A stretch of 28,704 nt of DNA from Octopus sinensis (taxonomy: Eukaryota). The DNA lies in contig NW_021827501.1 of the NCBI RefSeq assembly GCF_006345805.1, forward strand, positions 1 to 28,704, written 5' to 3'. Below are positions 4,468 through 19,416 of this stretch, piece after piece. The notes beneath the pieces were generated by a model. It was not told the origin of the DNA and ran no database searches. It worked only from the letters and a program-made list of their open reading frames with translations. Position numbers and translations under genes: made by a program. Numbering within the stretch: position 1 is the first letter of the stretch; each line of letters begins with the position of its first letter.

Positions 4468-4617
4468 TGACACTAGATGATTAAAAATCATTGCATCCGA
4501 GACCACCTGGTTTTCTTTTTATCAATCACCGACATAATCAATCGATACTCGACAGACCACCTTATAAATTTTTTAAAATTATCTCTCCAGTCTTTCAACA
4601 ATCTACAGCAATTGCAA

Positions 4618-4828
4618 GGTGGCGAGCTGGCAGAAACGTTAGCACGGCGGGTGAAATGCTTAGAAATATTTCGTCTGTCTTTAAGTTCTGAGTTCAAATT
4701 CCGCCGAGGTCGACTTTGCCTTTCATCTTTAGGGGTCGATTAAATAAGTACCAGTTACACACTGGGGTCGATCTAATCGACTGGCCCCTTCCCCAAAGAT
4801 TTCGGACCTTGTGCCTAGAGTAGAAAAA
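4618..4828 (+). mobile_element. tRNA-derived SINE, family A, tail type 1
   Basis: GGTGGCGAGCTGGCAGAAACG...GAGTTCAAATTCCGCCGAGGTCGACTTTGCC, tail CCTTGTGCCTAGAGTAGAAAA; many related copies in the window. Confidence 0.9.
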
Positions 4829-7558: not shown

Positions 7559-7679
7559 CGTACATACATACATACATAAATACATACAAACATAGGCCAA
7601 TGATAATATTTATCTACACATATATATTATATGTACATATATGTATATGTCTGTATGTGTATGTATCTATATACATGTG

Positions 7680-7735
<56 letters not shown>

Positions 7736-7894
7736 CATGTATATTTATGTATATATATATATATATATGTATGTGCATATATGTATGTGTGTGTTTCATG
7801 TATGTGTCTGTATGTGTATGTGCGTGATTGCATGTGTGATGTGTGTTCGTGTGTGCATGTGTGCGTGCGCATGTGCATTTGTGTAAGCATGTTC

Positions 7895-9176
<1,282 letters not shown>

Positions 9177-9458
9177 ATACAATATATATATATGTGTGTG
9201 TATATATATATATATGTAGATATATATATATATATGTTGTTATAGCACTATAAAATAGGAATAAACATATTAGCTCTCTTTCTGGAAAGAGCATGGAAAT
9301 GTATTTTCAAACTGCAAGGAAGATAAACAACATGCAGCAGAGATTTGTTTATATTTTGTTGTTGCATCCATTATCATTATTATCCTAATCGTCATCACCA
9401 TCATCTCCATCGTTCTTTTTGCGTTTTCCAAATTCAAAGCAGCCTATAGAATTGTTTA

Positions 9459-9788
<330 letters not shown>

Positions 9789-10279
9789 TTAATAGCAACA
9801 GCATCTAAATGTCATCTAGACACTCAGTCATCTTTTGTTATCAATTTTTACATTGAATTGTAGTAGATGACTATTAACACACACACACACACACACACAA
9901 AAGAAAAAAAGAAAATCGTAGCGTGTATGTTTTGAAAACATCTGATAAAGGTATCTCAAACAGACACAATCTGTTAACAATACTCGTATTACCAATAGAT
10001 GCTGACTTGATACATATATCTTGGGAATATCAATAATACACTGATAGAGATCGACTAGAACGGTGAAAATGGCGTTCACATTGAATAACATACACATACT
10101 CACGCACGCACGTGTGTGTATATATATATATATGTAAGGCACTTATAAATGTTACTATCTATAGTTTCAGTATTTGCGTATTACATGTGTAAAATATATT
10201 GCTTTGTGTTGGCCACGTAAAACTGAGTAGCAATATGCCGTGCTTTTTCATTCAACATTATTATTAAGGTGTTTACATA

Positions 10280-10495
10280 GGCGGCTAGCTGGTAAAATCG
10301 CTAGCACGCCGGGCGAAATGCTTCGCGGTGTTTCACCTGTCGCTACATTCTGAGTTCAAATTCCGCCGTAGTCGATTTCGTCTGTCATCCTTTCGGGGTT
10401 ATTTAAATAAGTACCAGTTACGCACTTGGGGCGATGTAACCGACTTAATCCCCCTCCCCCAAACTTCCCTCTGGCAACAATTTGAAATCATTATT
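10280..10495 (+). mobile_element. SINE-A copy
   Basis: GGCGGCTAGCTGG...CTGAGTTCAAATTCCGCCG...AAATAAGTACCAGTTACGCAC. Confidence 0.85.
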
Positions 10496-10511: not shown

Positions 10512-10888
10512 TTATATTTTTTAATGTTTGACTTTTGATTTACATTTGTACAAGTTGGCTCCAAGTCTCACCCAGAGACCTCAAGAGACAACAAGTTGGA
10601 AGTTCATGTTGGTGTTATGCCTAGCGTGCCATATATTTGGTTTTGTACATAGTGTTGTTCTAGACAATGTTTAATTATAAGAAAATTTGTTTTAAAAACT
10701 TGAGATTACATAGAATGTATTTTGTGTTGATATGGGCAGTTCCGATGAATAGTGTCTTTTGAATTTCTGCCATTTTGGGGTTCTCTAGTATGTGAGCCAG
10801 GTAGCAATCAGCCCCTTTTGCTATCATTCCCAGGGCACCTATGACAACAGGTATTGTTTTAGTCTTCAGGTTCCACATTATGCTAATT
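10512..10888 (-). mobile_element. R4/Dong-like non-LTR retrotransposon, short 3' fragment (C-terminus and 3' UTR) abutting (TAA)n
   Basis: MWNLKTKTIPVVIGALGMI...IQK...GTAHI is homologous to the C-terminus at 18586-19017; its 5' junction runs directly into the (ATT)n tract. Confidence 0.8.
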
Positions 10889-10898
10889 ATCATTATTA

Positions 10899-10958
<60 letters not shown>

Positions 10959-10987
10959 TATTATTATAATTATTATTATAATTATTA

Positions 10988-11037
<50 letters not shown>
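10886..11037. repeat. (ATT)n microsatellite
   Basis: Direct repeats. Confidence 0.95.
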
Positions 11038-11042
11038 GCTAA

Positions 11043-11263
11043 GGGGACGAGCTGGTAGAGTCGTTAGCACGCCGGGTAAAATGCTTAGCGGCATTAATAT
11101 GCTTTTACGCTCGACTTAATATGCCTTTACGCCGAGGTCGACTTTGCCGTTCATTCTTTCGGAGTGAATAAAATAAGTAGCAGTTGAACACTGGAGTCCA
11201 TGTAATCGACTTATCCCCACTCCGAAATTGCTGCTCTCGTGCCAAAACTTTGAGCAATTATTA
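11043..11263 (+). mobile_element. SINE-A copy with internal rearrangement
   Basis: GACGAGCTGGTAGAGTCGTTAGCACGCCGGG...GCCGAGGTCGACTTTGCC; short internal duplication of TTAATATGC(T/C)TTTACGC. Confidence 0.8.
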
Positions 11264-11429
11264 TTTATTTTCTGGTTCTTGCTTCTTGCGTTTAGTGTTC
11301 ATAACCCATAAGGTTAACTTTGCCATTCGTGTATCCGGGGTAGGCAAAAGAAAATACCAACGAAGTACAGGGAATCGATTTTATCTTCTAATTCTAATTC
11401 ACTTCCTCTCACTATTGTTCGTTTTGTAA

Positions 11430-11810
11430 GGCGGAGAGCTGGCAGAAACTTTAGCACACCGGACGAAATGCTTAGCGGTATTCCGTCTGCCGTTACGTTC
11501 TGAGTTCAAATTCCGCCGAGGTCGACTTTGCCTTTCATCCTTTCGGGGTCGATTAAATAAGTACCAGTTACGCACTGGGGTCGATATAATCGACTTAATC
11601 CCTTTATCTGTCCTTGTTTGTCCTCTTTGTGTTTAGCCCCTTCTGGGTAGTAAAGAAATAGGTATTCCGTCTGTCTTTACGTCCTGAGTTCAAATTCCAC
11701 CGAGGTCAACTTTACCTTTCATCCTTTCGGGGTTCGATAAATTAAGTACCATTTCCGTATTTGGAGTCCATCTAATATCGTACCTTGTGCCTGGAGTAGA
11801 AAAGAATATT
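11430..11810 (+). mobile_element. Host SINE-A copy (tail type 1) interrupted by a nested insertion
   Basis: Head 11430-11489, resumes at 11661-11810 with TCTTTACGTCCTGAG... and tail GTGCCTGGAGTAGAAAAG; GGTATTCCGTCTG is duplicated at 11477 and 11661. Confidence 0.8.
11490..11660 (+). mobile_element. Nested 5'-truncated SINE-A, tail type 2, with 13-bp TSD
   Basis: CCGTTACGTTCTGAG...GTGTTTAGCCCCTTCTGGGTAGTAAAGAAATA flanked by the GGTATTCCGTCTG direct repeat. Confidence 0.75.
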
Positions 11811-11855
11811 TTTGGTTTTGTGCCTAAATCGGAAATCATTATTTCTCGAGCGTCA

Positions 11856-12072
11856 GACGGCGAACTCGCAAAATCGTCAACACCCCGATAAAATGCTTAG
11901 CAGCATTTCGTCTGTCTTTATGTTCTGAGTTCAAATGATGCTGAGGTTGACTTTACATTTTATCCTGTTTGGATTGATGAAACAAGTACCGGTGGAACAT
12001 TGGGGTCAAAATAACTGAAAAGCTTCCCTAGTCATAATTTCAGGTCTTATGCCTATAACGTAAGGTATTATT
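11856..12072 (+). mobile_element. Diverged SINE-A copy
   Basis: AAAATGCTTAGCAGCATTTCGTCTGTCTTTATGTTCTGAGTTCAAAT...TTCAGGTCTTATGCCTATA. Confidence 0.8.
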
Positions 12073-12289
12073 TATCCAGTGTTTTCTGGGCGATAGCTAG
12101 ACACAGGCATATAGTCGGGCCGATGAGTGAAAAGGAGGTTTCACTTTTAAATGGAAACCAAACACTTCATTATAAACGACATTGATAAACTGTTAAAAAT
12201 TAAGTGTTACATGTTTCCAACAATGGCACAAGGCCAGAATTGAACCAACTTCATTGCTTATTTTACCATCCATCACTCCATTGGCAATT

Positions 12290-12500
12290 TCTACCTTTGG
12301 CACAAATTCACAAGTTTTCAGTCAGGAATGTGGTACGCATGACTAAGTCCGCTACAGTTCTTGGCTGATCTCTCTTTGATCGATACCGATCAATTGAAAT
12401 ACAAATTTGACCATTCTTGAGTTTGAATTCTGATTCTAACGGGGCGTAACTCAATACGGTAAGGTATTTGGGTGTAAAGTGTATCCATTCAGTGATCCAC
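12290..12500 (-). mobile_element. Old, decayed SINE-A copy (another fragment at ~13057-13185)
   Basis: Patchy reverse-complement similarity (TTTGGCACAA, GAGTTTGAATTCTGA; CTCGTCGGAATTTGGAACTC at ~13166). Confidence 0.45.
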
Positions 12501-13271
12501 CGCTATCTTAGCTAGTGTTGTAACAACAGAAAGTTGTTGAGGTTATCGTTGTTTTTCTTTTTGTTTACCTTAGACTCGGTTTGTTTGAGCTGACCTATAG
12601 CGGCCTGCCATTTATCAGAATAGACAATGAATCTTCAACTAGAAAGCTATTTTCCAGGGCGCATGACTTGCTGTTATTAATGTTGTAGTGAATCCCTCTC
12701 CCCACGTGTCCCCAGTGATGTTCAAAATAAAGGCAAGTACCACCCAGTTGGTACCAGCAATGTCACTGCACGTTGGCTGAGAGCATAAAAATCTGGGGTA
12801 AAACGCAGTCATACCATCTTGTCTTAACACATGAGATACTATGTAAATCCAACCCCTTAAACGATCTATAAACCAATATATTTCAACGATGAACATCATT
12901 TTTGTTTTCTAAACGTAGGACAATATTCTCCAACATATCCATTTTTTTTTTTAGATAAGAGTTTCATTTACTGGAGTATGGCTATTGTTTCTAGACAGCG
13001 ATCGACCACAAAGAGTTCCTTCGCTGGCTTGTAAAAATTGTGACAAATTATTAATAGGTGCACGGCCCAAAATTTTATTGTAAAGGAACAGTAAATTTTA
13101 ACACACCTAAAACTTGAATGGTTGTCATTTGATCGAACCCGCAAGATTGCAATTCAAAGCTAACCTCGTCGGAATTTGGAACTCTATATGATGCTAGCTG
13201 ATCTGTATGTGTGCATATGCCGATGCGTGTATAAGCAAAAAAAAACAGTAAACATGCAAACACGTGTAGTT

Positions 13272-13877
13272 AACATTATCAATACAACACAGTTAACGTA
13301 GGTGTGTTGTTCAAGCGCGAGAAGCAGTGGATTTTCGTCCTTTAAAATCTTTTTAAATACGTTAAATTCAAATTACGATGAACGTAAACAAACAAACGAA
13401 GTTTGCTTTAGAAGCATTGAAATATCTTAGAAAGTTAAAGAAGTGATTTTAAAATTCTCACACAGAATACACTTCAGAGCTAGGCTAAATGAAATCACCC
13501 CGGAAGTCATCAAGAGAGCGCCAGATACCGTATTTCACCTAATTGCAGCTTATCAATGCCGTATACGCGCGTCACTTCCGAAACGTAATCAGAATCGCTA
13601 GTCTGAAGTATAAATAGAGAGTGTGTAAACAATTTTCTGATTTGCAATCGCATCCCATAAGTAAATTAAATTCAGATAATTCTATAGAAGCAATTCTATA
13701 ACGTAAACATTATCAACACCAAATACAGAACGGTCGTGTATTGTTTAAACACCAGATGTTGTAGTTTCTCGTCTGGGGAAATTTCTTTAAAGTCATATAG
13801 TGTTATTAATCACAATATATCCCAGAACTAGGCGAAATGAAATCGCCTAGCAAGTGATCCTGAGAGCTGCAGATATA
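13272..13877. repeat. Diverged direct repeat pair (13272-13357 plus 13461-13528 vs 13706-13791 plus 13809-13877)
   Basis: AACATTATCAA...GTGT.TTGTT.AA...TCGTC...TTTAAA and CAGA.CTAGGC.AAATGAAATC.CC...AAGT.ATC..GAGAGC..CAGATA occur in both copies in ungapped alignment. Confidence 0.75.
13500..13650 (+). promoter_or_regulatory. Possible promoter-like motif cluster
   Basis: CCGGAAGT (13500), GCGTCACTTCCG (reverse complement CGGAAGTGACGC, ETS/half-CRE, ~13569), TATAAATAG (13609), GTAAACA (13625), TTGCAAT (~13642). Motif presence only. Confidence 0.3.
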
Positions 13878-14494
13878 TTTTAATTCTATGTTTTTAAAAC
13901 ACCCGTATACATTAAGTATGTGGTGTTCACAGATTTTACATTAAACAGAAACTTTTATTGCATAATCTGAACATGTAGTTCAATATATCTACAGATTTAA
14001 CATAGGAATAATCCTGTGACCTGATCTAGTAAAAAAAAGTAAAAAAAAAAAAAGACTTAAATGTTTAATATATATTGATATATATTGAGATGAGTGACAA
14101 TATTGCAACATTGTCGGTGTACAAGGGAGATTATTCGATCATGTAATTTCGGAAGCAAATATTTTTGCGGAGACGAGTTTTGAAGGATTTTCGATTTATA
14201 TATTATATTTCGTCGAATAAAATGCAAAAGTTGATTAGAAAATATTGCATTTTGACCCTTGACAGATGAATCTGACATTCTCCGAGAACGATGAAAGAAA
14301 GTAGATAATAAATAATCAATAAAACTGAAAGAGCCTCAGGACTTCTTACCTAATGAATGTGATTGAAATGGCGAACCGTGTTTGCCAGTTATGTCTGAAT
14401 GTGCATACTTGCATACCATGCAGATACACATGCGCGTACGCACAGACGTAAAATCGTCCGCTTACACATATACATTTGTGCGTGTGTGTTTTGC

Positions 14495-14502
14495 ATATAT
14501 AT

Positions 14503-14579
<77 letters not shown>

Positions 14580-14580
14580 T
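14495..14580. repeat. (TA)n microsatellite
   Basis: Direct repeats. Confidence 0.95.
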
Positions 14581-15256
14581 TACATGTAAGCATGCATGAA
14601 CGTATATAAACATGGATATATAAATGTATGCATATATATACCCACATATACTTACATATTTACATGTAGGTGAGTATTAGACGTGTTGCTGCATCTCCAT
14701 AAGCACAAGCAATTATCGACACATCATACATACACGTATTTAACAATTGCTTACGTGTTTACGAGGTATTTGTGAAATACATACGTGCCTGTGAATATAT
14801 GTGTTTTCGTGTATGTGTGTGTTCGGGCATGTGCGCGTGCATTTGGATGCTTATAATTATGTTTGTAAAAGTAGTTTTACTTGGATGTTGCCTAGATTTC
14901 AGCGAAAATCCAATCCATTTTTTATTCATGATTTATGGAGATAGGAAGCCAAGGGATTCGTGAATTTCTGTATGCCGTTATATAAATTTTAATGCATATA
15001 GCGCAGATACAAGAAGCTATTCTGCTAGAGAATGTGTGAATACATCATCAGCTTGAAATAAAATGTGACATGTTTGTTAAGCGTACAAGAGCTAACAAAA
15101 ATAGTTTACTTCATTCAAAATATTTAACTGTTATGTTAAGATATAATTTAAGAAAGATACCCATTGCCGGGTAGTCTGATAGATATTAAGCTTGCTTCAC
15201 GAGACATATCCTTCGGGCTTCTGTCAAGTAGACTCAGCAGCAAGCTCTCTTTTAAA

Positions 15257-15557
15257 TTGTTTGTTCCTTCTTGAGACATGCCTGGCTCATTAGGGCCGGT
15301 TTCCCGGTTTCCTTGGCGTATAGGTTCCCCACCTGTACGGGGCGCCGGTCCTTCGCAGGTGAGCTTCAAGATGCAGGAGGAAAGAGTGAGATGTTGTGGC
15401 GAAAGACTCAGCAGAGGTTCGCCATTACCCCCTGCCGAAGCCGCGTGGAGCTTAGGTTTTTCGCTCACAAACACAGACATCGCCCGGTCTGAGATTCGAA
15501 CCCGTGATCCCTCGACCGCGAGTCCGCTGCTCTAACCACTATGTGGTTAGAGCCTCT
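15257..15557 (-). mobile_element. tRNA-derived SINE, family D (GC-rich, CpG retained)
   Basis: Reverse complement AGTGGTTAGAGCAGCGGACTCGCGGTCGAGGGATCACGGGTTCGAATCTC (tRNA D- and T-arm boxes), then a ~230-bp body ending GGAAACCGGGAAACCGGCCC...GAAGGAACAAACAA. Confidence 0.85.
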
Positions 15558-15591
15558 ACTCTCTTTTATATAAAGCTTCACAATTTACTTA

Positions 15592-16215
15592 AAATATTTC
15601 ACTTAATCTTATTTCACTAAAACTGAGTTGGGTGGGAAAGGTTTGCAGACCAGGCTCATTAGAACGTGTCCGGCATGTCAGGAACCAGTAGGATATTATG
15701 GTGACCACAGAGGTCGAGAAGTAGCATCAAAGAAGCTGTGGATAAGCTGTGAGATCTCGTAGAAATAGCTGCAGTTGGAGTGGTGTTAAAAGGAAAGAAA
15801 CTGGGGTTTGATCAACCTTGGCTTGGTTGCTTGGTCTAAGGCGTCTGATGTTCAAACATTTAAAACTCTAAAAAGCTAAAACTAGAAACACAATAATTCA
15901 AGGAAATATTTCGCCTCATTATATTTCACTAAAATTGAGCTGGTTGGAAATGCTTTGCAAGCCTGTCTCTCTGAGCATGTCCAGCATCACATGAGCCAGT
16001 TTGCTAACATGTTGACCACGGAGGTAGAAACGTAGAGTCAAAGAGGCTGTGGATACGCTGTGAGATCCTGATGAGGTAGCCGTAGCTGGAGTGGTGCTTA
16101 AAGGAGAGAAAATGGAGTTTGATCAACATTGACTTGGTCGCTTGGTTTAGGGTATCTAATCTTCAAACATCTAAAACTCGAAAGATCTAAAACTTGAAAC
16201 CCAGTGGTTCCGAGT
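15592..16215. repeat. Diverged tandem pair of a ~312-bp unit
   Basis: AAATATTTC at 15592 and 15904; shared TATTTCACTAAAA.TGAG, GCTGTGGATA.GCTGTGAGATC, TGGAGTGGTG, GTTTGATCAAC, TTCAAACAT.TAAAACTC. Confidence 0.9.
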
Positions 16216-16361
16216 AATATTATCAAATGATATGTCCCGTTATATCACAGGGCAATGTAAGGAAAGGCGTTGACATATCTACAGTAAAACAAAATGAGAT
16301 TCAGGTAATTAAAAATCTTTAATTTTATGAAGTGATGAATATAAATTGGTCACAGTATTTC

Positions 16362-16591
16362 GGGTGCATGAATGGTTGTGCGATTAAGAATTTCGTATTG
16401 CAACCACGTGCTTTCAATTTCAATCCACTGCGCAGCACCTTGCAAAAGCCCCATACCGATTAATGTCTTGTGAGTGAACTTGACAGACAAAAACTGAGAA
16501 GACAGTACTAGGTGGAAAGAAATACAGAGAGAGTGAGGGAGGGAGAGACGGAAAGAGACAGAGACAAACAGAAAGACAGATAGATAGATAA

Positions 16592-16646
<55 letters not shown>

Positions 16647-16723
16647 TAGATAGATAGATAGATAGAAATATAGATAGATAGACAGCTAGATAGATATATA
16701 GACAGACAGACAGACAGACAGAC

Positions 16724-16764
<41 letters not shown>

Positions 16765-16857
16765 TAGATAGATAGATAGATAGATAGATAGACAGTTAGC
16801 TATATATATATATATATAGACAGACAGACAGACAGACAAATAGATAGATAGATAGAC

Positions 16858-16944
<87 letters not shown>

Positions 16945-17187
16945 AATATAGGTATACATACATAAACAGGCACACACACACAAGAACATATACACGCATA
17001 TGCATTCGTGTCTTTGTGTTTGCCCTCATCCCACTGCTTGACAGCCGGTGCTGGTTTGTTTAGGTTCCCGTAAATTATCGACTCAGAAAATGTCCGATTG
17101 AATAGATACCAAATCCCAAAGGAAAAAGATCAGCGATGATATGTTCAACAAATGCTTCAAGGCTGTACTCTAGAATCATCGCAGACT
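16362..17187 (+). mobile_element. Old SINE-B copy with its internal microsatellite expanded to ~480 bp of (GA)/(GATA)/(GACA)
   Basis: Head 16362-16509 (CAACCACGTG...CCACTGCGCAGCACCTTG...CTTGTGAGTGAA), tail from ~17005 (GTGTTTG...TGCTTGACAGCCGGTGCTGGTTTGTTTA...). Confidence 0.7.
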
Positions 17188-17260
17188 CCTCAAAATGTCA
17201 GGCCTTGTGCCTCTAGAACAAAAAATTATAATTATTATTCAATTGCTAGATGAATTTTTA

Positions 17261-17472
17261 AGGCAGGAAACTGAGAGAATCGTTAGCACGCCGGCAAAAA
17301 TGCTTACCAGTATTTCCTCTGCCACTATGTTATAAGTTCAAATTCCGCTGGTGTTTACTTTTCCTTTTACCCTTTCGGGGTAGATAATTTAAGTACCAGT
17401 GGGTCAATGTAATCGACCAGTCCCCACGAAAATTAAATTTTAGGCCTTGTGCCTATAATAGAAAGTGTTATT
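17261..17472 (+). mobile_element. SINE-A copy, tail type 1
   Basis: GAATCGTTAGCACGCCGG...AGTTCAAATTCCGC...GGCCTTGTGCCTATAATAGAAAG. Confidence 0.85.
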
Positions 17473-17874
17473 TGCTATATAAATCAACTGGGTGTTTTGA
17501 AAGTCCTGTTCGTAGTTAAAAATATAATATTCATTCCAGGTAGAATATTAACCTCCTGCAAAAATAAATTTCGAAATTAAAATATCAACTGAACATTACT
17601 TATCTATGAGGAAAATGAATACTAATACTATCCAATATAATTCCATTCTATAAGTCCTCGTATACCTTGGTCATTTCAATGAAAACTTAACGCAGTGGGA
17701 CTCTTTTCTATGCAAATAACAGAAAAGTGGGTACATCCTGGATGAGACAGAATAAGAACGTAGATATTAAACCACCTCGCAAAATTAGATTGTCCAATTA
17801 AGTAATCTGCAGGATGCTATTTGGCAAAATATGGTGATCATCAGGATACCGTTTGTAAAACGGTATTCGGTAAT

Positions 17875-18089
17875 GGCGGCGAGCTGGCAGAATCGTTAGC
17901 ACGCCGGGCGAAATGCGTAGCCGTATTTCGTCTGCCGTTACGTTCTCAGTTCAAATTCCGCCGAGGTCGACTTTGCCTTTCATCCTTTCGGGGTCGATTA
18001 AGTAAGTACCAGATGTAATCGACTTAATCCCTTTGTCTGTTCTTGTTTGTTCCCTCTGTGTTTAGCCCCTTGTGGGTAGTAAAGAAATA
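17875..18089 (+). mobile_element. SINE-A, tail type 2, intact 5' end, with 13-bp TSD
   Basis: GGCGGCGAGCTGGCAGAATCG...GTGTTTAGCCCCTTGTGGGTAGTAAAGAAATA; GGTATTCGGTAAT at 17862-17874 and 18090-18102. Confidence 0.92.
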
Positions 18090-18401
18090 GGTATTCGGTA
18101 ATAAGGAATGTTGGAAATTCTGTTCTGGTATATTTATATGTTCAGCTGCCCTGTACAGGCATATATAAATACAACATATGTGCATGTATGCATGTGTATG
18201 TGTGTGTGTGTGTGTGTGTGGTGTGTGTGTCCTTTTAGTTCGTTTATGGGTAACGTTTTGAATATGCATATAAAAGCTCCTTTTTTATTAAGTTGGCTAA
18301 AGCGTATTGATACCAACTGTCAATAACAGTTTTTGCGGCTTGCAGCGAGTTGTGTCGATAAAATGTACAATAAATATACAAACTACTACTAATAACAACC
18401 G

Positions 18402-18488: not shown

Positions 18489-19013
18489 CAGTAGTTTTAT
18501 TTTTATAGCGTTCTTTCACTTTACTACCGAGCACAGCTCTGTGTGCCTTGGGTATGTGCTGTGATTTGTTGTGATGCTCTGATGGTTATTGTATGGAAAG
18601 TGTTCTGCGTAGGATGTGTGCAGTGCCTAATAGTGCAATTTTCTGTATGTTATATGTGTTTGTAAGTCCTGGTGTTTTTGTTATGTATTTGTCTGAATAT
18701 TTTTTTATCATGCCTAATGCACCTACTATGATAGGAATTGTTTCTGTTTTCAGATTCCATATTCTAGTTACCTCTATTTCCAGGTCTTTGTATTTTGAGA
18801 GTTTCTCCATTTCTTTTAGAGACACGTTGTCATCAGCCGGTATTGATACATCAATTAGAAAGCATTTTTTTTCTTCATGATCTCTGACAACTATATCTGG
18901 TCTGTTGGCCTTAATTTCTCTATCTGTGTGTATCGGCATATCCCAGAGTATGGTTGATTTCTCGTTTTCTGTGACCTTTTCTGGTGTGTGCCTATACCAT
19001 CTTTTTTCTGTTG

Positions 19014-19017
<4 letters not shown>
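18489..19017 (-). mobile_element. 5'-truncated R4/Dong-like retrotransposon: uninterrupted restriction-like endonuclease C-terminus (stop at 18586) and 3' UTR, within (TAA)n
   Basis: WYRHTPEKV.EN...ILWD..IHTDR.I.ANRPDIVV...CFLIDVSIP.D.N...KE.EK.SKY.DL..E..R.W...IPII.GALG...IQK..LLGTAHILR matches the PD..D RLE domain of R4-clade elements; (ATT)n on both sides. Confidence 0.9.
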
Positions 19018-19095
<78 letters not shown>

Positions 19096-19175
19096 CATTA
19101 TTAATATGATATATGTATGTATGTATATATATATATATATATACTCATACATACATATATACATGTATACATATA
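19018..19175. repeat. (ATT)n then (TA)/(TATG) microsatellite
   Basis: Direct repeats. Confidence 0.95.
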
Positions 19176-19416
19176 AAAGAGATGAAGACGAGAAAATGGA
19201 TTGAACGATATTCTTCATTTCACATCACAATTGTTTGCACACATCTCTTCAATCCATTTTCCCCCTTATTCATCTCTTTATCTAAACTCGACGGATACTA
19301 TGGAATTCCAGATGTATATCCAATGACAGGTGTATTGACATCCGGTAGCTAATTAACGTGGACAAGATTTGTATAACATACGGCAAGTTTTCTACCCATT
19401 ATTATTCAACTCTTGA

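Follow-up and report, generated by a model that had tools for sequence, protein, structure and literature searches.

A SINE of Octopus sinensis nests in its own older copies and shares tail and insertion site with an L1/Tx1-type LINE

We describe a short interspersed element (SINE) of Octopus sinensis that enters the heads of older copies of its own family at one fixed point, together with a long interspersed element (LINE) that carries the same tail and lands nearly always at the same point. Several SINE copies lie in a 28,704-nucleotide stretch of DNA (hereafter the window; NCBI RefSeq assembly GCF_006345805.1, contig NW_021827501.1, positions 1 to 28,704), for which an initial annotation had proposed, from two insertions, both the entry point in sister SINE heads and a full-length LINE with the same tail; the first is borne out genome-wide, and the second was found. 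The analysis establishes the nesting, the greater age of the hosts, target duplications of 13–18 bp, a SINE-targeted LINE, the tail common to both elements, and flanks linked to lineage. As an explanation we favor loosely specific nicking combined with pairing of the target with read-through RNA, which would probably make targets heritable.

Positions in the SINE are numbered from a natural copy beginning AAGGCGG, with site 49 at window position 11477 and site 16 at 11444. The two TAGT-tail copies of the window, one nested in a sister SINE and one in unique DNA, have the following parts:

11413 to 11427, forward strand: left outer, older target duplication of the composite, TATTGTTCGTTTTGT (13/15 match to 11807-11821)
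11428 to 11476, forward strand: host SINE head as far as the insertion point (site 49)
11477 to 11489, forward strand: inner 13-bp duplication, left copy, GGTATTCCGTCTG (exact)
11490 to 11660, forward strand: younger inserted SINE, body and TAGT-type tail
11661 to 11673, forward strand: inner 13-bp duplication, right copy, GGTATTCCGTCTG (exact), where the host remainder begins
11674 to 11806, forward strand: remaining part of the older host, ending in a decayed tail of another kind (type 1)
11807 to 11821, forward strand: right outer duplication of the composite, TATTTTTGGTTTTGT
17862 to 17874, forward strand: GGT-start target in unique DNA, left copy of the 13-bp duplication, GGTATTCGGTAAT
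17875 to 18089, forward strand: TAGT-tail SINE monomer with a CGTAGCCG head and a short internal deletion
18090 to 18102, forward strand: right 13-bp duplication, GGTATTCGGTAAT (exact)

The exact 13-bp duplications around both copies, the C before each left duplication and the TTTC in the copies at 4618, 11856, and 17875 are all as initially annotated, and the chance of an exact 13-mer near the expected place is about 5e-6. The outer duplication of 15 bp flanks the whole composite (11428-11806), its copies TATTGTTCGTTTTGT and TATTTTTGGTTTTGT agreeing at 13/15 positions; being the older of the two, it fits a host SINE that inserted first. Segment 11632-11660 comprises the 3' hairpin and AAAGAAATA end of the inserted SINE and is homologous to the LINE 3' end.

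Counts in the 2.72-Gb assembly show that the nesting is recurrent and that the flank goes with the tail. The TAGT-type tail has 46,186 exact occurrences, at least 12,551 of which (a floor of 27%) are followed by GGTATTTCGTC, the SINE's own internal site; a further 2,383 are followed by GGTA[ACG], giving at least 14,934 before GGTA in total, and 590 by AGAA. The CAAT tail has 10,826 copies, followed by AGAA in 4,326 and by GGTA in 776, so that the association of tail type with flank (TAGT with GGTA, CAAT with AGAA) has an odds ratio of at least 141. Site 16, which reads AGAA, is a second SINE site, the re-entry point of CAAT-tail SINEs. A sample of 90 loci, taken in genome order from one contig (C1), holds 99 exact tails, of which 43 lead back into the SINE at site 49; counted per element, the 107 TAGT copies comprise 46 nested, 27 with TAT, 15 with GGT, 4 with AG, and 15 with other starts. 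A second sample, consisting of 30 loci from a mid-tail pattern with 40,906 matches and representing ordinary copies, has 7 of 28 tailed loci nested at either site. A subfamily strictly specific for the SINE, as first proposed, is therefore too strong a description, only 46/107 sampled TAGT-tail elements being nested: the 3' flanks, whose randomness was to have told against the proposal, are non-random and include a recurrent SINE site, but over half of the copies lie elsewhere, at TAT, GGT, and AGA starts.

Target duplications could be called in 66/113 monomers and 43/66 composite chains and are mostly 13–18 bp long. In 25 GGT-type duplications, many of them chosen by the GGTA[ACG] pattern, positions +1 to +4 are G in 23, G in 24, T in 23, and A in 20, and positions -6 to -1 have no consensus; conserved target bases thus lie solely 3' of the nick. 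The target consensus C^GGTATTC(C/G)GT that the initial annotation had drawn from the window fails on this count: before the nick, 9 duplications have C, 10 have T, and 6 have A, and 3 have C at +7. The common GGTATTC and its preceding C are peculiar to the two window copies and do not hold genome-wide. A preference for four bases cannot account for the nesting either, since site 49 makes up 33 of 2,131 GGTA sites in 400 kb yet receives 46 of 61 GGT-start insertions (odds ratio about 195).

The hosts have diverged more than the inserts, so that nesting into older hosts is real. In chains that end in a type-1 tail, upstream units differ from the column majority by 4.9% and downstream units by 9.3% (20 pairs, p=0.004, r ~0), and type-1 monomers diverge by 9.2%, equal to those downstream units. 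Chains ending in the same tail type show 3.6% upstream vs. 4.8% downstream (31 pairs, p=0.027), and chain heads are of intermediate age. Outer duplications mismatch by 8.2% in chains (n=43) and by 3.3% in monomers (n=66), a comparison in which the register shift allowed for type-1 and type-3 ends may inflate the figure. The left side of nested inserts usually has no clean host copy; as cDNA and host head share homology, the left junction would be resolved by pairing between them. The window composite is one of few that keep a host variant on both sides: the TTCC shared by its two repeats had been taken as a sign of true duplication, and as a rule this does not carry over, a rare +7 variant being present in both repeats at no more than 3 of the 26 loci that are informative (of 30 loci, 4 were left out as truncated or misaligned, one of them a false "shared", and mutations after insertion confound the test).

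At one locus (L012), the tail has no SINE core upstream and is the end of a 5.3-kb LINE, which we call LINE49. Its first open reading frame (ORF1, 509 aa) matches zf-CCHC (E 4.5e-5), and its ORF2 (1133 aa) contains Exo_endo_phos (an apurinic/apyrimidinic endonuclease, APE), RVT_1, and a C-terminal CCHC finger with the motif CPRC...H...C; a frameshifted C-terminal piece of ORF2 gave no Pfam match, and the best PDB matches are L1 endonucleases. A CCHC zinc knuckle in ORF1 is a feature of the Tx1 clade. Judged by its domains, the CCHC of ORF1, and its fixed-site insertion, LINE49 is an L1/Tx1-type LINE; its best named homologue among 120 listed is from Argonauta hians (61% identical), none of these 120 or of 10 clusters is a named Tx1 reference, and the reverse transcriptase tree holds unnamed relatives only. 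The LINE49 3' end, ...TATGTTTGGCCCCCGGTGGGCAATAAAGAAATT, matches the SINE tail, and a GCCC-N5-GGGY hairpin with a AATAAAGAAAT end is common to the SINE and five of the six LINE-derived families compared, the sixth matching the upstream half of the SINE tail only.

LINE49 is nearly confined to site 49. A DNA search made without SINE sequence gave 486 candidates, 40 scored at 99–100%, and all 30 sampled loci continue into site 49, with G as the junction base in 18 and C in 12. In an overlapping sample from a pattern search that found 137 exact LINE49 ends, 29 of the first 30 are at site 49 and 1 is not; 26 of the 29 pass the threshold, 2 have a 1-bp deletion, and 1 follows a short slip. The junction base in this exact-end sample is C in 16/29, unlike that of the SINE, which is C in 159 vs. 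G in at least 12,551. Of the copies examined in their entirety, all 20 are full length and follow a SINE head; both ORFs are open in three (L283, L286, and L289), and base 49 is the same left and right of the LINE in 21/21. Contigs of four sequencing runs of presumed type also include pieces spanning the LINE–SINE junction, which carry no weight here as evidence. LINE49 copies diverge by about 1% and most SINE copies by about 3%, so that the LINE is the younger. Behind LINE49, a rare host variant occurs in 4/54 vs. 6/564 (p=0.007), an enrichment that counts as weak because the variant also marks a minor SINE subfamily.

The second autonomous family, LINE16, has an ORF2 about 71% identical to that of LINE49 and forms arrays with ORF1-only derivatives within the SINE at site 16. 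We examined 47 of 61 LINE16-pattern ends: 16 share GGCATGGTTTGTCCGAT (the GGCATG class), 6 share the site of a more diverged subfamily, 3 are of the site-16 type, 3 lie in the LINE's own ORF1, 2 are at another site, and 17 are single. The GGCATG copies checked have full 16–17-bp duplications on their flanks. LINE16 copies at site 16 and a unique-site copy starting AGAAA form one clade (support 0.997), and a copy whose 3' untranslated region is identical to that of two GGCATG copies stands at a unique site starting GGCA. Across three unrelated recurrent target classes, the ORF2 of the LINE16 family is 98–99% identical; fixed endonuclease differences number 2, 1, and 6 on 2, 4, and 3 copies, and 1–2 against the GGCATG class. 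A first look for zf-RVT gave 24,042 candidates, and the families among 30 sampled loci share AATAAAGAAAT, often with a hairpin, and differ in their flanks (U1 small nuclear RNA [snRNA], tandem arrays).

Several of these LINE families showed further peculiarities. At least three ORF1-only derivatives, each about 1.7 kb long and sharing the 3' hairpin, lie head-to-tail with full LINEs in the SINE at site 16 (derivatives at L335, L337, L343, L344, L348, L329, L330, and L326; arrays at L440-L446; 36 exact matches for one family). A U1 snRNA gene (Rfam, 125 bits) immediately follows the one copy observed of another L1/Tx1-type family (L312:2228-2391), a family that is likely U1-targeting. A sister LINE family, about 50% identical in the C-terminus, is arranged in tandem in (TATC)n (L082:6400-7400 and L074:6900-8100). 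Tandem LINE arrays with a spacing of 5.3–5.7 kb (L313-L318) have shared 3' flanks that resemble the 5' end of the next copy, and another LINE family (L293-L307 and L447-L451; 30 exact ends) has mixed targets, being spread over a 50-bp satellite, unique sites, and two repeats that each received more than one insertion.

Three features of the sequences are indirect signs of possible read-through: the absence of a terminator, the one-sided match to the target, and targets linked to lineage. An RNA polymerase III (pol III) transcript without a TTTT terminator runs on. The SINE unit contains no TTTT, and in the two window copies the first one lies 144–149 nt downstream of the tail (at +149 for the inserted tail of the 11477 composite), so that a pol III transcript of this candidate pol III unit would carry the flank. 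We propose that the LINE protein binds the GCCC-N5-GGGY hairpin and AATAAAGAAAT, that the RNA continues past the tail end, AAAGAAAT[AT], into the parent's own flank, and that pairing of the primer with this RNA extension would let reverse transcription start in register with the end of the tail. Extensions would differ by lineage, and because the parent's extension would pair with the target, daughters would share the parent's site: the offspring of a copy at site 49 would land there again or at similar GGTA sequences of unique DNA, those of a copy at site 16 at AGAA, and those of a copy in TA repeats at TATA. In a SINE host, the left junction would be resolved by homology, often erasing a clean duplication and leaving 184-bp tandem units. 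R1Bm and R2Ol are established cases in which read-through RNA assists by pairing with the target (PMC7265360, PMC6530143). That RNA acts as the guide in octopod L1/Tx1-type LINEs and the SINE at large, with target specificity that is heritable, reprogrammable, and held in RNA rather than protein, and with runaway self-nesting once a lineage lands in the commonest SINE, is a proposal to which we give even chances.

Head variants also follow the flank, although they sit 180 nt away from it within the TAGT-tail class: the CGTAGCCG head is present in 15/16 TAT-flank vs. 12/24 GGT-flank copies (p=0.005) and in 16/60 nested ones. The same head variant (SINE positions 44 and 49) is rarely a target of SINE insertion and takes about half of LINE49 insertions, a pattern that possibly reflects self-avoidance by the SINE and then catch-up by LINE49.

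The classical Tx1 model would instead assign one sequence-specific endonuclease to each LINE family (for site 49, site 16, or TA repeats), with the SINE borrowing several enzymes at different times, precision relaxed in trans, and the RNA extension at most a helper. It suits LINE49, which is nearly strict at site 49 and accepts either host base, the second LINE lineage and the ORF1-only elements at site 16, and the sister families in (TATC)n or directly before U1; moreover, the Tx1L endonuclease is sequence-specific in vitro (PMC1950540), and SINEU-1 and -2 use the Tx1-Mar target loosely (PMC4494074). With the CAAT copies older (6.0%) than the TAGT copies (2.6–3.5%), timing could link tail and flank, and the left base is C more often where the SINE junction is C (16/33 vs. 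17/72 otherwise, p=0.014). We nevertheless find this model doubtful, given unrelated 16-bp targets despite ORF2s 98–99% identical, the lack of conservation 5' of the nick, unique-site copies that start with the first 4–5 bases of their own lineage's target, a SINE junction that is G-only where that of LINE49 is G or C, and TAT and GGT classes that have one tail and similar age. Of the Tx1-like enzyme invoked in the initial annotation, the LINE partner exists; an endonuclease acting alone does not fit a target that tracks lineage despite a near-identical enzyme.

Several observations weigh against heritable, RNA-guided targeting as well. The two points just given on age and on the left base count here too: timing could add to the tail–flank linkage, and the excess of left C means that a part of the SINE insertions, like those of the LINE, take over the base of the host. 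For LINE49, base 49 comes from the host, so that strict memory is not needed there; a young LINE49 clade has both host bases (11 G, 5 C), and mapping the base onto the LINE49 tree requires 5 changes vs. 7.25 when shuffled, a difference short of significance (p=0.07). Being younger than most SINE copies and having a CAAT-like tail, LINE49 is at most a candidate maker of the TAGT burst, and no LINE with TATA or TAT-class flanks was found among the families examined. For LINE16, 17/47 ends are singletons, some of which belong to other families; the 16 flanks of the GGCATG class differ so little that they could have traveled inside a mobile host, the third target class is a single tandem locus, and the endonuclease comparison covers 2+4+3 copies, with residue 117 differing between two classes. 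Junction mismatches at +1 to +3 point both ways, and the evidence for the putative read-through pairing comes from sequence.

Another reading, very improbable, denies nesting altogether and traces the composites to whole-dimer retrotransposition of a few composite masters, to template switching, or to local tandem duplication: a donor-type head (G44/C49) occurs in 5/17 type-1-ended chains, with C49 in 0/20 type-1 monomers, the +7 variant is rarely shared, and long arrays share private variants (L044, L071, L010), but downstream units are older than upstream ones, with uncorrelated ages in type-1-ended chains, the chains end in tails of no fewer than three types, outer duplications are older, and full-length LINEs interrupt hosts at the same base. 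A minority of the composites, chiefly the long arrays, probably did arise through dimers or duplication. SINE tandem arrays of this kind have 184–188-bp units, up to 8–9 of them, with shared private variants (L044, L071, L085, and L010), and could be seeds of SINE-derived satellites. Rolling-circle copying of a circular RNA was rejected, first units carrying the head and last units other tails. Elsewhere, the last 6–7 tail bases are duplicated at the junction (GAAATA GAAATA), as if priming had slipped (L009, L054, L107, and L391), and inverted SINE–SINE junctions set a tail or body against a reverse-strand copy (L002, L103, L114, L129, and L190).

The remaining sister copies in the window are uninterrupted or old:

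4612 to 4782, forward strand: sister SINE copy, uninterrupted, followed by a type-1 tail
10274 to 10452, forward strand: older sister SINE copy with another tail, uninterrupted
11048 to 11217, forward strand: old sister SINE copy, about 76% identical
11858 to 12014, forward strand: old sister SINE copy, about 75% identical
17256 to 17434, forward strand: old sister SINE copy, followed by a type-1 tail

The window also contains local tandem duplications at 7619-8543 / 8277-9179 (about 630–660 bp) and 15592-16221 (310 bp), and C-terminal LINE fragments on the reverse strand at 18586-19224 and 10675-11115, beside (ATT)n runs and with a QKIALLGTAHILRR motif. These fragments are presumably Dong/R4-like (the one tested had no Pfam hit); as partner of the SINE, they were rejected on their differing ends (locus L009 and the window ORFs). 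Folding of the two window elements is no better than that of shuffles (z -0.55 and -0.98), which leaves a ribozyme or processed-RNA origin of the junction without support.

The SINE head has motifs that by eye resemble A and B boxes, ARAGORN predicted 0 genes, and an Rfam search of the SINE gave no match, including none to snRNA. Octopus SINEs derived from transfer RNA (tRNA) have been described (Ohshima and Okada 1994, as cited in PMC4824008), and tRNA-Core and tRNA-Deu SINEs are known in octopus genomes (PMC8967140). The present SINE, very abundant in an octopod genome and with a putatively tRNA-like head, resembles these by description and may well be one of these families. Self-targeting and a Tx1 partner, found here, are not described for octopus SINEs in the sections of PMC8967140 and PMC4824008 available.

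The closest known system is that of the Tx1-Mar LINEs and SINEU of crocodilians, which target a Mariner DNA transposon and in which the SINE heads derive from snRNA (Kojima 2015, PMC4494074). As there, SINE and LINE share a target inside another repeat, with two preferred positions, tandem insertions, and a weaker preference in some SINE families (90%, 23%, and 13%; PMC4494074). Unlike SINEU, however, the SINE described here targets its own family, nesting in tens of thousands of places, and has a head without an snRNA match; unlike Tx1-Mar, as far as the available text of PMC4494074 goes, lineages with nearly the same ORF2 differ in target. Tx1L in Tx1D, Keno in U2 snRNA, and Kibi and Koshi in microsatellites are likewise APE-type LINEs with a CCHC ORF1 and a multicopy target, comparable to the sister families found here in (TATC)n and before U1; for them the available portion of the same source names no SINE target and puts specificity mainly on the endonuclease (PMC4494074). 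In R1Bm, SART1Bm, and R2Ol, insertion gains in accuracy or efficiency when RNA reaching into the target base-pairs with the primer strand, and pairing of this kind is what we propose here; there it helps a fixed, enzyme-defined target (PMC7265360, PMC6530143), whereas here it would set the target and let it change by lineage. We found no description of a SINE-self-targeting system in the literature searched; Repbase, subscription journals, and supplements, which lay outside that search, may record the families or their targets.

The SINE and LINE49 form a closed loop, in which the LINE lands in a SINE that uses the LINE's tail, and which has reshaped tens of thousands of loci and built tandem arrays. 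A target defined by the RNA extension would explain the frequent target switching of Tx1-type elements, usually credited to evolution of the endonuclease, and, if true, would point to an RNA-programmable, target-primed insertion enzyme.

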